Source: a virus (Duplodnaviria; Caudoviricetes). From it: 27,337 nt of DNA. Shown in pieces: positions 8,715 through 18,764 of the stretch (positions are counted from its first letter, which is position 1; each line of letters begins with the position of its first letter). A program made the position numbers and the translations under genes. The notes under the pieces were generated by a model that was given only the letters and a program-made list of their open reading frames with translations, ran no database searches and was not told the DNA's origin. The stretch is from positions 1 through 27,337 of IMG/VR virus record IMGVR_UViG_3300006110_000031; one strand, 5' to 3'.

Positions 8715-8923
8715 TATTCTGGCTCTACTGTAGTTTCTGCTGGTACTTCTGGAGTTGGCTCTACAGGAGTCATTTGCTTTGCTACTTCAGCATTGGCTTT
8801 TAGGATAATCTCATCATGAAGCTTTTGCACCAATTCCATTGGGAGCTTTCTCAATCCAGCAAGAATTAGCTCTAATTCTGCGGTTGTATGCTCAAAAGTG
8901 ATTTTTAGGTCTTTGATATTCAT
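8714..8923 (-). CDS. Hypothetical protein
   Basis: 69 aa; ATGA overlap; ELELILAGLRKLPMELV helical motif. Confidence 0.7.
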   Translation of the reverse strand: MNIKDLKITFEHTTAELELILAGLRKLPMELVQKLHDEIILKANAEVAKQMTPVEPTPEVPAETTVEPE

Positions 8924-9063
8924 TTTTTACCTTTTTTTGCAGCTTCTTTCTTAACGGCATAAGCAATAGCTACTGCCTGCTTTACTGGTTTTTTGCCTTC
9001 TTTGACTTCTTTGGCAATATTCTCTTTAAAAGCCTTTTGGCTGGTTGATTTCTTTAGTGGCAT
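8920..9063 (-). CDS. Small basic protein MPLKK..., in-frame internal start (47 aa)
   Basis: AGGAG lies 8 nt before the ATG at 9063; MPLKKSTSQKAFKENIAKEVKEGKKPVKQAVAIAYA resembles a widespread standalone small phage protein. Confidence 0.65.
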   Translation of the reverse strand: MPLKKSTSQKAFKENIAKEVKEGKKPVKQAVAIAYAVKKEAAKKGKK

Positions 9064-9267
9064 GGTTTTGCTCCTAGTGGTTGCTTTCTTTAAGGCTGGT
9101 TTAGGTTTTGGTGCTTGCTTGTTTAATGCTTTAGCCACATCCTCAGTATTGAAGTTTTTAGGCCACATTTTTGCTATTTGCCTGGCTCTATAGTTGTAAT
9201 AGGCCCATGCGATTACAAAGATTGCAAAGGCTGTAAAGACTAATGACATGACTAACTCATCCGACAT
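8920..9267 (-). CDS. Membrane-anchored Lys-rich protein (long form)
   Basis: Likely start MSDELV at 9267 with GAGG RBS; TM segment LVMSLVFTAFAIFVIAWAYY; continues in frame into the MPLKK peptide. Confidence 0.55.
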   Translation of the reverse strand: MSDELVMSLVFTAFAIFVIAWAYYNYRARQIAKMWPKNFNTEDVAKALNKQAPKPKPALKKATTRSKTMPLKKSTSQKAFKENIAKEVKEGKKPVKQAVAIAYAVKKEAAKKGKK

Positions 9268-9571
9268 TTTGGGCTTCCTCAAAACAAACATCCTGCCAAC
9301 TCATCACCAGATACTTAACCCCATCTTCATAGTAAGGGAAGTATTTGAGATATTCCTCGCCTGGGTCATCATTCATAGTGCCAAAGCGGATTCTTGCTCC
9401 AACTTCAATAGGCATATCTTCTCTGCGACCACCTGAAAGCTTTTTACCAGGGCCAACAGCAATGACTGTACCCATGTTTTCGACTTCTTTGTTATCAACA
9501 ATAATGATGCTAGAAAGCTCTCTAACATCAGGTTTGACTACAATTTTGTCTGCTAATGGCTTGAGTTTCAT
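9257..9571 (-). CDS. groES: Co-chaperonin GroES (Cpn10)-like protein
   Basis: MKLKPLADKIVVK..GTVIAVGPGK..MPIEVGARIRF..DGVKYLVMSWQDV matches the Cpn10 pattern. Confidence 0.88.
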   Translation of the reverse strand: MKLKPLADKIVVKPDVRELSSIIIVDNKEVENMGTVIAVGPGKKLSGGRREDMPIEVGARIRFGTMNDDPGEEYLKYFPYYEDGVKYLVMSWQDVCFEEAQNVG

Positions 9572-10176: not shown

Positions 10177-10204
10177 ATTTTGCCTTATTGGTTACCCATG
10201 TCAA
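10177..10204 (-). promoter_or_regulatory. Candidate late-operon promoter
   Basis: Minus strand perfect TTGACA (10204-10199), 16 bp spacer, CAAAAT. Confidence 0.4.
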
Positions 10205-12191
10205 GCACTTTAAATACTGGTTGATTTTTAAAAGAAATTGCCATATTTTGAGCTGAATCATGATAGCCAGAATAACCAGCTTCTTTAATCATTCTTTCCC
10301 AATCATTAGCTTTAGTTTCTGCATCAAGAATATTAAATTTATCTCGATTAAATGTATCAGCCATTTTTAATAAATTATCTGGGTCTTTTCTTACATCATA
10401 AGAATTTTCAATATTCGATTTATATTGATTTGGGCCAAGACCAGGCTCTTTCATCTCTGGGTTTAAGTAAAAATGAGTCCTGTCTTTAACAGCTCCAGGG
10501 GCTCTTAGTCTTTCAGCTTCCTGGCCTCTTATACCAAAACCATACTTTTTAACATCAGTCTGGCTTAAATTTGGGCTATTGCTCCAATGAAATCCTTCAA
10601 TAGTTTGACCATTTTCAGGAACTATATGTTCTTTCATATAATTTGGAACACCACCTCTGTAATCTAATTCAAGCATATCAGGGGGTAATGCCAGGCCTGT
10701 TTGTTTAGCATATTCCCATTGACCGCCTAATTCCCTAAGCTTTCTGTCCATTTCTGAGGTATCTTGGCCCATTTTTTCGGCTGCTGTCTTTTCTACCCTC
10801 ATCAAGGCCATTTCTTTTTCAAGGTCTGCATTGATTCCAGAATAATTTACAAAGCTGTTTTGACCTCTGGTTTCAGAAGCAGCAGCTATTTGAGCCAATG
10901 GGCTTAAAGTTTCTTTGTGAGCTCCATAAGCCAATTCTTCACCTTTTCTGCCAAAGGTTGAGCCTGTAGTGCCATGACCAATATAGTCATGAACTGCCCT
11001 AAATTTTTCATTAGTATTTAAGCCATAGTAAGGGTCAAATTCATTGAGAAAAGGATGCTCCTCACCACCTCTAAAAACATACATATGGTTTTTATTAAGG
11101 GCATCATCTAGCATTTCTCTAGAATTAGCATAATTGGCATTGCCACCATGAAAAGAAAAATTAACCCCTTTATTCACTAAATTATCAAATTGCTGGTTTA
11201 CTTCTTGGCGCAAAGCCCCATAGGATTTATGAACCAAATCATCATAATTTTGAATATCATGCTTTGCTAATAGTTCAGGATGCTTTGCTTTGTAATCCTG
11301 ATAAATGGCATCTTTTAAAGCTGGACTTACATCATCCTTAGATAATGTTTCATAAGCCCTGGCAATAGGATGTTGTTTTAAAAGGGATGAGCCTGGCATG
11401 GCTTTGATTTTTTCAATGTCAAAGTCTGGGTTATGTTCTTTGGCTATTTGGATGGCTTTATTTTGTTCCTGACCATTGAATGCACCGCTTCCTTGTGACT
11501 CTCTAAGTTTTCTATTTGCAAAGCTTGTTTGAAGCTTTTCTTGTCCAGAAGTGGCTTGATTCCATGCTTTTTCATTACTCTGAGGTAATCCTGATATTCG
11601 TCTAAATTGTCCTTCATCTTTATATCCTTTTTCTAAATTTTCTGGATTAAATATCTGATAATAAGTTCCTCCTGTCATATCAGTATGTTTTACACCTTGA
11701 TACCCTTGGCTAATTAGCTGATCTGTAAAATATTTGTCTGCCTCATCTCTAGATGCAAGTTTTACTTTTCCTTCATCAATTAACCTTCTTACAACAGCAC
11801 CCTTGCCTGTAGCTGCTACTTCTCCAATATTAGGATTGGTAGTAAACCAAATACTTCCATCAGCAGACTTTGCAATATCAAAACCTGCTTTTTCAATTTG
11901 TTTAGCTGCTTCTTTGCTTGTTCCATGAAATATTGCTGTTGCTCCCATAAAGTTTGGCAAATAATTTTGAGTAAATTCTTGCATTGCTTCTGGGTAATAG
12001 TTTGGATTTGGCTTGCCTAAAAAGTCAGTTTTATACAATCCAGCCATAGTTTTATCCATAGCTCTTTGATTTTTTTCAAAGTTTTCAGGCCATTCTTTCC
12101 AATATTTGTCTAATTTTGTAGACAAAGTTTCTCTTTGATTTTTTAATTTTTTATTATCAAATTGTTTTTGAATTTCATCTGCTAGAGCCAT
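10185..12191 (-). CDS. Multi-domain polyvalent-type protein: ART-like, HDxxGH metallopeptidase-like, second ART-like domain
   Basis: aa ~86-187 IFHGTS..GF..GSIWFTTN..GYQGV..YQIFNP; aa ~395-450 FRAVHDYIGHG..GEELAY..SETRGQNS; aa ~530-660 GFHWS..RTHFY..EAGYSGY. Confidence 0.6.
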   Translation of the reverse strand: MALADEIQKQFDNKKLKNQRETLSTKLDKYWKEWPENFEKNQRAMDKTMAGLYKTDFLGKPNPNYYPEAMQEFTQNYLPNFMGATAIFHGTSKEAAKQIEKAGFDIAKSADGSIWFTTNPNIGEVAATGKGAVVRRLIDEGKVKLASRDEADKYFTDQLISQGYQGVKHTDMTGGTYYQIFNPENLEKGYKDEGQFRRISGLPQSNEKAWNQATSGQEKLQTSFANRKLRESQGSGAFNGQEQNKAIQIAKEHNPDFDIEKIKAMPGSSLLKQHPIARAYETLSKDDVSPALKDAIYQDYKAKHPELLAKHDIQNYDDLVHKSYGALRQEVNQQFDNLVNKGVNFSFHGGNANYANSREMLDDALNKNHMYVFRGGEEHPFLNEFDPYYGLNTNEKFRAVHDYIGHGTTGSTFGRKGEELAYGAHKETLSPLAQIAAASETRGQNSFVNYSGINADLEKEMALMRVEKTAAEKMGQDTSEMDRKLRELGGQWEYAKQTGLALPPDMLELDYRGGVPNYMKEHIVPENGQTIEGFHWSNSPNLSQTDVKKYGFGIRGQEAERLRAPGAVKDRTHFYLNPEMKEPGLGPNQYKSNIENSYDVRKDPDNLLKMADTFNRDKFNILDAETKANDWERMIKEAGYSGYHDSAQNMAISFKNQPVFKVLDMGNQ

Positions 12192-17148: not shown

Positions 17149-17352
17149 ATGAATGAACATATATGGACTGCATCAGGAACAGATATTACAATTCGGTGGA
17201 AACTTCATGGTTGGATTCCACCATCAGAATTGCAAGAATATAAAGATAAATGGAAGTATTACCAAAATTTACCTTTAAGAAATCTAGATGATGCAGCTAA
17301 AGAACAGTATGAACAAGTAATGCGAAAAGCTAAAGTATTGAGGATTAAATAA
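17149..17352 (+). CDS. Hypothetical protein
   Basis: 67 aa; AAGGAGG RBS; TDITIRWK.HGWIPPSE. Confidence 0.75.
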   Translation: MNEHIWTASGTDITIRWKLHGWIPPSELQEYKDKWKYYQNLPLRNLDDAAKEQYEQVMRKAKVLRIK

Positions 17353-17636
17353 TGGCAACTAAATTAAAGGTACTTGTACCTGCTATAAAAGAAAAATCTG
17401 GCAAAGTGATAGTGGCTAAGTCAAAAGCTTATAGCCATGATGAACTTAAAAAGATGGTTGGTAAAGCAGCCAAAGGCGCAAAGCATGAATTTGAGCTTTC
17501 TAATGGTCGAATTGTGACTCGCAAAGTTGCAGCTAAAGTAGCTGAAAAAGCTGGCGAAGTACCTAAGTCTGTTGGAAAAAAACTTCACAGCCATGATTTG
17601 CGAAGGGCTGAAGGCATTAAAAAGAAAAAGATGTAA
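17352..17636 (+). CDS. Very basic (Lys-rich) hypothetical protein
   Basis: 94 aa, 22 Lys; TAATG coupling on both sides. Confidence 0.75.
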   Translation: MATKLKVLVPAIKEKSGKVIVAKSKAYSHDELKKMVGKAAKGAKHEFELSNGRIVTRKVAAKVAEKAGEVPKSVGKKLHSHDLRRAEGIKKKKM

Positions 17637-17731: not shown

Positions 17732-17909
17732 ACCAGTTCCATTTGGAGGGAACTTAAAGACTCCATCAGATGATTGTGAAGAGGCATTCTTTGCGCTTTA
17801 CCCAGACTTTTTCTATGAAGGCTCTACGGCCCTTAATTTATGGACTCAGGCTTGGTTTAATGCATTAGATTGGGTTGAAGATAATAAAAAACTAATTCAG
17901 CTTATATGA
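17721..17909 (+). CDS. Hypothetical protein
   Basis: 62 aa; CEEAF..LWTQAW motif. Confidence 0.68.
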   Translation: MTDEPVPFGGNLKTPSDDCEEAFFALYPDFFYEGSTALNLWTQAWFNALDWVEDNKKLIQLI

Positions 17910-18079
17910 GAAAGAAAAAAATTCGAGTTACCTATGAATCTAGGTATAAAGAATTACTTAAAGATTATCAAAATGTATTAGATAAAATGGGAAAACAAAC
18001 TGTCAGAATTATTAAGCTTCAAAAGCTAATTCGAGAAGCCCATTCTATTATGATGAATCATATAGACTTCAAAGAATAA
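17906..18079 (+). CDS. 57-aa basic coiled-coil protein (not in ORF track)
   Basis: ATGA overlap; MRKKKIRVTYESRYKELLKDYQNVLDKMGKQ...HIDFKE*. Confidence 0.62.
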   Translation: MRKKKIRVTYESRYKELLKDYQNVLDKMGKQTVRIIKLQKLIREAHSIMMNHIDFKE

Positions 18080-18170
18080 AGGCAGTTAAGCCTACACTCA
18101 AGGATGCAACAAGTAAGGGCTTTTTAGGCTTTCGACCTTACAGTTAGTAGTTGCCAAATTGATGCCTTTA
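18077..18170. ncRNA. Candidate structured RNA with pseudoknot (strand undetermined)
   Basis: Three nested helices (8, 5 and 6 bp) plus a 7-bp crossing pair AAGCCTA/TAGGCTT fill the convergent intergenic gap. Confidence 0.55.
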
Positions 18171-18764
18171 TGCCCCTAATATATCCATAGCTTTATGGAT
18201 TTTATTAATTCGGTCATCTAGGCCTAAAGTACCACCATTGATGCGCTTGGTCATAGTATTCCAATCTTCAGCCTCAGCAAGGGCATTTAAGCCCTTTTTG
18301 TTCCAAAACCAGCCAGCAGATAGGCAAGCCCACTCAGGCTCTAAAAGAAGGCTTGGTTCGCTTGTAAAAGGCTGTCCTAAGGCATCGCCACATACTTGGT
18401 AATTAGACCGCCCTGTTAGCTGTATAACCCCTCTGCCATGAAACTTCCAGCCATCGCCATCTTGGGTATTGCCAAGGTCGGCTCTACCGCCATAAACCTT
18501 GTTTGCAATCATTTCAGGGTTGTTTGCATACTTTTCGGCAGTATTGGCATCAGGGAATCGAGAGGGCCATACTCGCATCAAAGCCCCTGCGCTGTAATGA
18601 AGGTTTTCTTCTAAGGTTTTAAAGTTATTAGATTCATGCTGACATTGTCCAATAAAGGCAGCTTGTCGCTTTGGAGTATCTATGCCATATTTGGAAAAAG
18701 TATCATTTAAAGGTTTAAGCCATTTTTGGTCTATGCCAAGGGCTTGTAATTGCTCATTCGTCAT
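18168..18764 (-). CDS. Endolysin, glycoside hydrolase family 19
   Basis: AAFIGQCQHES..LEENLHYS..GDGWKFHGRGVIQLTGRSNY..SAGWFW..TKRINGG..GL.DR. Confidence 0.93.
   Translation of the reverse strand: MTNEQLQALGIDQKWLKPLNDTFSKYGIDTPKRQAAFIGQCQHESNNFKTLEENLHYSAGALMRVWPSRFPDANTAEKYANNPEMIANKVYGGRADLGNTQDGDGWKFHGRGVIQLTGRSNYQVCGDALGQPFTSEPSLLLEPEWACLSAGWFWNKKGLNALAEAEDWNTMTKRINGGTLGLDDRINKIHKAMDILGA

Follow-up and report, generated by a model that had tools for sequence, protein, structure and literature searches.

A predicted pseudoknotted RNA of uncultured phages is a compact relative of the At1 and Ti2 RNAs

We analyzed a stretch of DNA of 27,337 nt (hereafter the window) from a phage with a P22-like coat and portal, and found that it carries, next to its endolysin gene, a predicted pseudoknotted RNA structure of ~95 bases that is conserved in many uncultured phages. 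Reciprocal model searches indicate that this element is a compact member, a shortened relative, of the At1/Ti2 RNA class, to which two small RNAs of Agrobacterium, At1 and Ti2, belong. The class itself is already known as an Rfam entry, and the compact form is a variant of a family without an explained function. As to its role, we favor, with a probability of roughly 0.4, a nuclease-resistant RNA processed from the early transcript, with a presumed role in trans as a decoy for a protein.

The positions of the element and of its parts are listed in Table 1. The RNA strand is +, the same orientation as that of the At1 and Ti2 transcripts; the Sak-like and exonuclease genes run on the + strand toward the element, and the endolysin gene ends on the – strand at it. 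A sequence-only reading of this junction had proposed four pairings (P1, P2, P3 and a pseudoknot), all of which are perfect Watson–Crick helices where they had been placed, and P1 extends by one further outer pair (18076/18171). As had been noted, P1 includes both flanking stop codons, TAA at 18077-79 (+) of the upstream ORF and TAA at 18168-70 (–) of the endolysin gene, the latter overlapped by the 3΄ strand of P1, and our scan found no simple hairpin-U terminator at the junction. However, four helices alone are an incomplete description: P1b, the pair G18085-C18095, the GGAU/CAAA internal loop and the UUUU and UC flanks are also conserved. The 9-nt loop closed by the lone pair consists of UU and the 5΄ pseudoknot strand AAGCCUA (18088-94), and the loop of P3 contains UUUU (18121-24), the 3΄ pseudoknot strand UAGGCUU (18125-31) and UC (18132-33). 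The upstream ORF is likely to provide the source transcript of the element; it is not a fixed partner, because other copies follow unrelated genes.

Table 1. Positions of the RNA element, its structural parts and the flanking genes in the window
Feature	Position	Strand	Basis
Whole element, compact At1/Ti2-like kissing-loop RNA	18076..18171	+	R1 match 18072-18174
P1, 5΄ strand; holds stop codon of upstream ORF	18076..18084	+	pairing, covariation in A1
Lone pair G18085-C18095; closes 9-nt loop	18085..18095	+	pair counts, compact and long copies
P1b, 5΄ strand; pairs with 18159-62, predicted to stack on P1	18098..18101	+	pair variants
Internal loop, 5΄ side GGAU; opposite CAAA 18155-58	18102..18105	+	conservation
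P2, 5΄ strand; pairs with 18150-54	18106..18110	+	pairing, covariation
P3 hairpin (18113-18/18136-41)	18113..18141	+	covariation, unbiased pairing test
Joiner J3/2, 8 nt; site of extra hairpin P4 in long copies and At1/Ti2	18142..18149	+	
3΄ strands: P2 18150-54, internal loop 18155-58, P1b 18159-62, P1 18163-71	18150..18171	+	
57-aa ORF; ends + strand run including Sak-like and exonuclease genes	17906..18079	+	
Endolysin; last gene of convergent late operon	18168..18764	–	phrog_181, E 6e-81

The 26 base pairs over four helices were reached by none of 2000 dinucleotide shuffles (best 25) and by 1 of 2725 94-nt tiles of the window, on a tiling grid that missed the element itself; from the single sequence alone, the four-helix fold is suggestive. 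The folding energy was ordinary compared with shuffles (z = 0.08 for the + strand and –0.78 for the – strand), so that the proof of the element is comparative, not thermodynamic, and the energy did not discriminate between the strands (+ lower in 44/126). Rfam searches of the whole window and of 161 nt gave no relevant match; the weak matches in the window came from terminator-like hairpins with A/U tracts in the capsid region (1723-1790, – strand; 2250-2275, + strand). An attP site was also considered, and no integrase was evident among the 15 ORFs scanned in the window, which covers 27 of ~36 kb. Elsewhere in the window, a 668-aa ORF (10185-12191, – strand) separates the small early genes from the terminase region. 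Small, very lysine-rich ORFs are found near operon ends in these phages (window 17352-17636 and 8920-9291; L406:1279-1425); that of L406 is phrog_16028, and window 17352-17636 matches no family.

Relatives were collected by pattern searches. One compact pattern matched ~260 stored stretches in IMG/VR, some of them by chance, and a second matched 24; metagenomes yielded ~170 pattern matches, and the long-form pattern ~230. The 246 distinct cores collected contained 57 different pseudoknot heptamers. The distance from the conserved G to the 3΄ pseudoknot strand was 39-41 nt in 226 of these cores under a descriptor that allowed 35-55 nt, and the spacing between the pseudoknot strands was nearly fixed in compact and long forms alike. 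For an unbiased test of the compact form we used the first compact pattern, which fixed neither pseudoknot strand; after 23 of its 88 distinct matches, which lacked the flanking letters, had been dropped, all 65 remaining matches paired 7/7 in the pseudoknot. In the long form, where the best of 1-3 candidate 5΄ strands was taken, 90 of 94 distinct cores paired at all five central pseudoknot positions (39 heptamers), and 38 of 42 distinct strand pairs fit, compared with a mean of 2.0 and a maximum of 8 for shuffled partners.

Covariation was scored in two sequence-only alignments, A1 (58 compact rows, chosen from 79 pre-filtered for pairing by a descriptor) and A2 (50 long rows, hand-picked). 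The scores were 0.62 versus 0.19 shuffled in A1 and 0.70 versus 0.21 shuffled in A2, with slid controls below 0.2 in both, these controls ignoring the kinship of the rows. Both sides had changed in 8/8 P1 pairs, 6/6 P3 pairs and 6/7 pseudoknot pairs of A1. Compensatory changes among homologues, which had been named as the check on the proposed structured noncoding RNA, were thus present, including in the 7-bp pseudoknot, where they affected 6/7 pairs in both alignments; the pseudoknot is real. The lone pair was G-C in 64 and A-U in 1 of 65 compact copies, and G-C in 85, A-U in 5, G-U in 2 and U-A in 2 of 94 long copies, and P1b (UCAA/UUGA) varied to UCGA/UCGA, ACAA/UUGU, CAAA/UUUG and UAGA/UCUA. 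The GGAY internal loop was retained in 86 of 92 distinct matches of a pattern without GGAY; in bacterial long copies the GGAU side varies. Pseudoknot pair 1 was always A-U and pair 2 was A-U or G-C in both alignments, the other five pairs varying freely, with the UUUU and A-U columns partly fixed by the search patterns. P4 can be absent, and many long phage copies have a weak P1, with 68.8% of its cells paired in A2. Divergent copies with other inserts were also seen (L280:1145-1263, – strand; L182:283-384, + strand, with an extra hairpin before the U-tract), and there may be further subclasses beside the compact and long ones.

We linked the two forms with models built from one form alone, R1 from A2 and R2 from A1. 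On the window, R1 gave a single strong match of 32.3 bits (E 1.9e-7, rough calibration; next 9.8), and it recovered 26 of 27 compact or divergent loci at E ≤ 0.015. Conversely, R2 found At1 (23.3 bits, E 6e-4), which ranked first among 17 long loci, although just 8 of the 17 were recovered at E < 0.1. The family model RF02496 (Atu_At1) did not report the window copy at E ≤ 10, and its gathering cut-off of 60 bits was not reached; some longer relatives matched below the cut-off, long phage copies at 7 of 16 loci scored above it (L470, L504, L402, L416, L422, L400, L415), and Ti2 scored 80.5 bits. The window copy itself stays unmatched in Rfam, but its novelty is reduced, the reciprocal models making it a homologue of RF02496. 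It carries the core letters G-U-Y-A-A...C and UUUU...UU-UC together with P1b, P2 and P3; the P4 hairpin with its conserved loop is absent, an 8-nt joiner standing in its place, and Ti2 is also without the conserved P4 letters. The structure line of RF02496 has no pseudoknot and draws a small hairpin where the pseudoknot strand lies.

RF02496 matched 11 of 151 genomes of one alphaproteobacterial order, and R1 matched 5 of 151 genomes across the phylum; with strict filters, R1 had no match on pSymA or pSymB of S. meliloti 1021. Genome searches with R1 miss known compact copies (2/5), and the compact genome tests therefore used R2, which recovered no copy beyond the one already known in 151 genomes of one class. 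The exact pattern matched 2 of 401 genomes, and a GTDB pattern scan gave 21 matches, of which 4 were true by eye, on MAG contigs with phage-like neighbors. All 9 positive phage records had one match each. Against 50,697 deposited phages, the sole blastn match of the window copy was a chance one of 19 nt; four other copies had no match. With At1 as the query, blastn returned 199 plasmid records, including the Ti plasmid at the coordinates of Ti2. A. fabrum C58 has two copies, Ti2 being located at L520:2171-2284 (NC_003065.3 173670-173783).

The kinship of At1 and Ti2 is not stated in the accessible text of Wilms 2012 (PMC3384568) or Lee 2013 (PMC3738593), and the largely open-access literature searched yielded no account of the compact form, of the family's distribution among phages, of the pseudoknot or of the Ti2-At1 identity. 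A search for 'Atu_At1' found no paper, and the text matches to 'RF02496' (PMC13599478, PMC9218633) were gene numbers, not the family. The family is not mentioned in the accessible text and supplements of the CaCoFold paper (PMC7657543), the accessible parts of PMC3616915 and PMC4814048 contain nothing on it, and the motif words are absent from the readable supplements of Eckert 2023 (PMC10085705) and Fremin 2023 (PMC10690425); the motif may be among the 8,495 candidates of the latter.

In the accessible text of Wilms 2012 (PMC3384568), At1 is 113 nt long (115 by Northern) and strongest at high density, whereas Ti2, also of 113 nt, is made from the atu6155-virK promoter in a VirA/VirG-dependent manner and is the most abundant Ti-plasmid transcript; its deletion left tumor formation unchanged. 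According to the part of Lee 2013 (PMC3738593) that was available, At1 was validated by RACE and Northern (one band of about 140) with RPKM values of 45 in log phase, 866 in stationary phase and 3597 in minimal medium, that is, rises of ~19-fold and 80-fold, and Ti2 was tentatively assigned to a 207-nt 5΄ UTR rather than an sRNA. The published 3΄ ends of At1 and Ti2 fall 0-4 nt beyond P1, and no U-tract follows, in keeping with trimming by exonucleases. GGAAC was present 38-53 nt before the conserved G in 13 of 19 bacterial copies versus 154 of 8766 background tiles; this word is the –35 box of the EcfG stress promoter, as described in the accessible part of PMC7083833. Bacterial neighbors included ligD, Ku, CsbD, otsAB and DUF982, and the annotated neighbors were stress genes in five bacterial regions and not in three or four others, three further regions being without annotation. 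Some bacterial copies stand alone between a promoter and a terminator or convergent gene (L394, L390, L396); others lead an operon. One Rhizobium plasmid (NZ_CP044127.1) has three copies (L526, L541, L542): one precedes ligD, one is at a distance of ~1 kb from two Ku genes, and one adjoins fragments of an AbiEi antitoxin.

The convergent early and lysis operons that the sequence-only reading had emphasized did not prove to be a general setting: copies are found within operons, too, and some come after tRNAs or have promoters of their own. In 111 compact contexts, assigned with a crude ORF caller, the upstream gene was co-oriented in 104, and the downstream gene was co-oriented in 58 and convergent in 51-52. 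The upstream genes were unrelated (terminase, SSB, exonuclease, HNH, endolysin, RNR, Dps-like), and no neighbor or partner gene recurred among the 38 of 107 upstream proteins scanned. Many long phage copies follow a Dps/ferritin-like gene (L225:1071-1505, many of L400-L519). These contexts bear on the idea of an aptamer for a small stress metabolite or ion, bound in a predicted triple helix, which would serve as a riboswitch in bacterial leaders or as a sponge in phages. Triplex-containing pseudoknots do bind ligands in the SAM-II and preQ1-II riboswitches, and the link to a stress regulon and the leader position in several bacteria would suit such a role. We nevertheless consider it very unlikely, given that a convergent gene follows some half of the compact copies, that the downstream genes share no pathway, and that the structure does not include the Shine-Dalgarno sequence, for which no alternative pairing is apparent (L395, L399, L528).

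At loci fetched by their endolysin gene, the element was at the junction in 35/80 and not in 45/80, the latter count including one carrier cut by a contig end (L042). Near-complete genomes of close relatives were without the element in 4/4 cases (R2 search, positive control working), and some relatives have abutting genes with nothing between (L015, L018, L067, L073). An Rfam search of 20 junction loci, the majority of which do not have the element, showed no other RNA family in its place. On a tree of 45 endolysin genes, its presence needs 9 changes, of which 5 are forced by well-supported branches (8 and 4 with L042 counted as a carrier), and variants with and without the extra hairpin are sisters. 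On the evidence of these loci and this tree, the phage element is accessory cargo that has been moved by recombination. Such gain, loss and swapping would agree with a neutral passenger spread by recombination, and two loops far apart in the secondary structure, together with copies adjoining terminase genes, would agree with intermolecular kissing into dimers or rings like those of phi29 pRNA. We give these ideas little chance of being right: strict compensation and dedicated promoters argue for selection, most copies lie away from terminase genes, the bacterial copies have no packaging role, and the fixed spacing suits an intramolecular fold.

In-frame stop codons were found within –12 to 25 nt of the conserved G in 121/186 compact copies (control 23) and 75/95 long phage copies (control 19); in 25/95 long copies the UAA inside the conserved GUUAA serves as the stop codon. 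This tight position could indicate a cis element at transcript ends that blocks exonucleases or ends transcription, the discrete RNA being a decay leftover; it would stabilize the upstream mRNA in phages and the downstream mRNA in bacterial leaders, and At1 and Ti2 are indeed in the leaders of ligD and atu6155-virK. A U-rich tail (at least 5 U in 8 nt) after P1, present in 31/69 convergent versus 2/16 operon-internal copies (related rows), and the lack of another terminator at the window junction are in line with such a role. However, the window copy has just 4 U in 8 nt past the last G-C pair of P1 and At1 and Ti2 end without a U-tract, the relatives with abutting genes manage with nothing between them, the stand-alone bacterial copies do not fit, and a plain hairpin would presumably suffice, so that we regard a cis role as rather unlikely. 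A hairpin followed by a U-run also occurs 110 nt past the element, antisense to the endolysin 3΄ end (18279-18296, + strand); it is not conserved, similar ones being found in 7/35 carriers and 3/45 non-carriers.

The 3΄ end of a tRNA-Met lies directly before three co-oriented long copies (L470:1972-2086, L552:1188-1302, L554:499-613), and another long copy (L420:1976-2085, – strand) is antisense in an array of 14 tRNAs, between tRNA-Val and tRNA-Glu. Two distinct copies start 0-4 nt past the tRNA-Met 3΄ end (L470/L552; L554). This spacing would fit a new self-cleaving or cofactor-dependent ribozyme that cuts at the conserved G-U-Y or immediately 5΄ of it and so serves to process tRNA trailers or polycistronic phage RNA. 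The weak P1 of many long copies would likewise make the sequence 5΄ of the G dispensable, as the sequence 5΄ of the cut is in HDV-like ribozymes. A ribozyme is nonetheless improbable, because At1 and Ti2 accumulate uncut as single bands in the accessible reports, conservation is confined to a small number of letters, chiefly U and A, and the cores of known classes are absent. In its size, pseudoknot and multi-stem junction the element agrees with the criteria for candidates in the available text of Eckert 2023 (PMC10085705), and self-cleaving ribozymes lie near phage genes according to that of PMC6765202; conversely, terminators follow some copies, a feature counted against self-cleavage in the accessible part of Weinberg 2017 (PMC5737381).

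Among the functions that the sequence-only reading had put forward (ribozyme, nuclease-blocking 3΄ structure, protein decoy and antitoxin mimic), constitutive self-cleavage is less well supported than either a stable trans-acting RNA or an end protector, and no toxin partner gene for an antitoxin mimic recurs among the upstream proteins scanned. The secondary structure, the pseudoknot, the homology to At1 and Ti2, the independence from neighboring genes and the accessory distribution are established here. If the RNA is a trans-acting decoy, as we prefer, the element would be transcribed at the end of the phage early run and fold, and host RNases would trim its flanks back to P1, yielding a stable RNA of ~95 nt. 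Two stacks, P1-P1b-P2 and G-C/pseudoknot/P3, would be packed side by side and locked by the kissing helix, and the U-tract would cross the major groove, forming U-A-U triples with the nearly fixed A-U pairs; we infer both the triples, from conservation only, and the side-by-side stacks. The kissing face, held in a fixed geometry, might then bind a host protein and aid the infection of starved or stressed cells. A discrete RNA ending at P1 and induced in stationary phase (At1) or by VirG (Ti2) is described for the homologues only, in the accessible reports, and would apply to the phage copies by analogy.

A stable RNA acting in trans is suggested because the fold is kept regardless of neighbors, is discrete in bacteria and stands alone there behind a stress promoter, and a purely cis role does not explain the stand-alone bacterial copies. 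Base-pairing targets are unlikely because the variable loops pair with each other, which makes a protein decoy the best guess. The structure retained under sequence drift, with its many pseudoknot heptamers, speaks for a decoy. Against it stand the lack of a recurring partner gene, the close relatives without the element, the unchanged tumors on Ti2 deletion, the view of Ti2 as part of a 5΄ UTR in the accessible text of Lee 2013, the U-tails at convergent copies, which favor a transcript-end role, and the antisense copy in the tRNA array. It is doubtful, though conceivable, that At1, Ti2 and the phage copies form a class of small triple-helical kissing-loop RNAs that has its own biochemical activity and might inhibit a host RNase or defense protein, or cleave RNA under stress only; bacteria would then have wired the class to the general stress response and Agrobacterium to the vir regulon, with phages carrying it as cargo.

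These results show that what had been catalogued as a Rhizobiales sRNA belongs to an RNA class widespread in phages and bacteria, and give the family a corrected, pseudoknotted structure and a minimal form of ~95 nt. They also join At1 with Ti2, which under induction is the most abundant Ti-plasmid transcript and to which the available text of 2012 assigned no function; redundancy of the two in one strain could explain the null Ti2 deletion. Since both occur in one cultured strain, the class can be tested without culturing phage, and the 5-bp kissing core, which can be exchanged freely, lends itself to clean compensatory tests.

Hammerhead, twister, pistol and HDV-like/theta ribozymes are similar to the element in size, in having a pseudoknot and in their position between phage genes or after tRNAs. 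The hammerhead core, CUGANGA, was found in 2/58 (A1) and 0/50 (A2) sense-strand rows, and twister and pistol core words (loose patterns) in at most 1 of 58 or 50 rows; none of the three had an Rfam match, in agreement with the earlier failure to recognize them here. HDV-like and theta ribozymes form a nested double pseudoknot with a CC/GG P1.1, and this strand order differs from that of the covarying helices, again with no Rfam match; a loose HDV L3 word occurred in 10/58 and 15/50 rows, and in 9/50 on the opposite strand. More generally, the strand order of small self-cleaving ribozymes is unlike that of the window element, and the At1/Ti2 homologues were seen uncut in vivo in the accessible reports.

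Type III toxin-antitoxin RNAs consist of tandem repeats upstream of a toxin gene and were rejected, the element being single copy with no recurring neighbor (38/107 upstream proteins scanned). A conserved peptide or read-through across the element was rejected as well, as was a CsrA/RsmA decoy: CAAGGAUG, which we take to be the CsrA/RsmA binding word, is a single site inside the internal loop of compact copies, is absent from 49/50 long copies and appears exactly in 24/85 compact copies found without fixing it. The internal loop presumably resembles the UAA/GAN motif, on which our literature search found no paper. ROOL and GOLLD RNAs are several times longer than the ~95-nt element and matched in none of the Rfam searches; they also occur in phages and bacteria, sometimes beside tRNAs, according to the accessible text of Weinberg 2017 (PMC5737381).

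At1 shows the same order as the window copy (P1, G-U-Y-A-A-N5-C, P1b, GAU/CAA loop, P2, P3, UUUU-N5-UU-UC) and the same 7-bp cross pairing. At 113 nt, At1 has P4, whereas the window copy of ~95 nt is without P4 and has a 4-bp P1b and a 4x4 internal loop. Ti2 shares the pseudoknot strands of At1 and differs in its own P4 sequence, a vir box promoter and its place in the leader of atu6155-virK. The setting differs as well, since the window copy follows a phage gene, whereas the bacterial relatives mostly follow a stress promoter.
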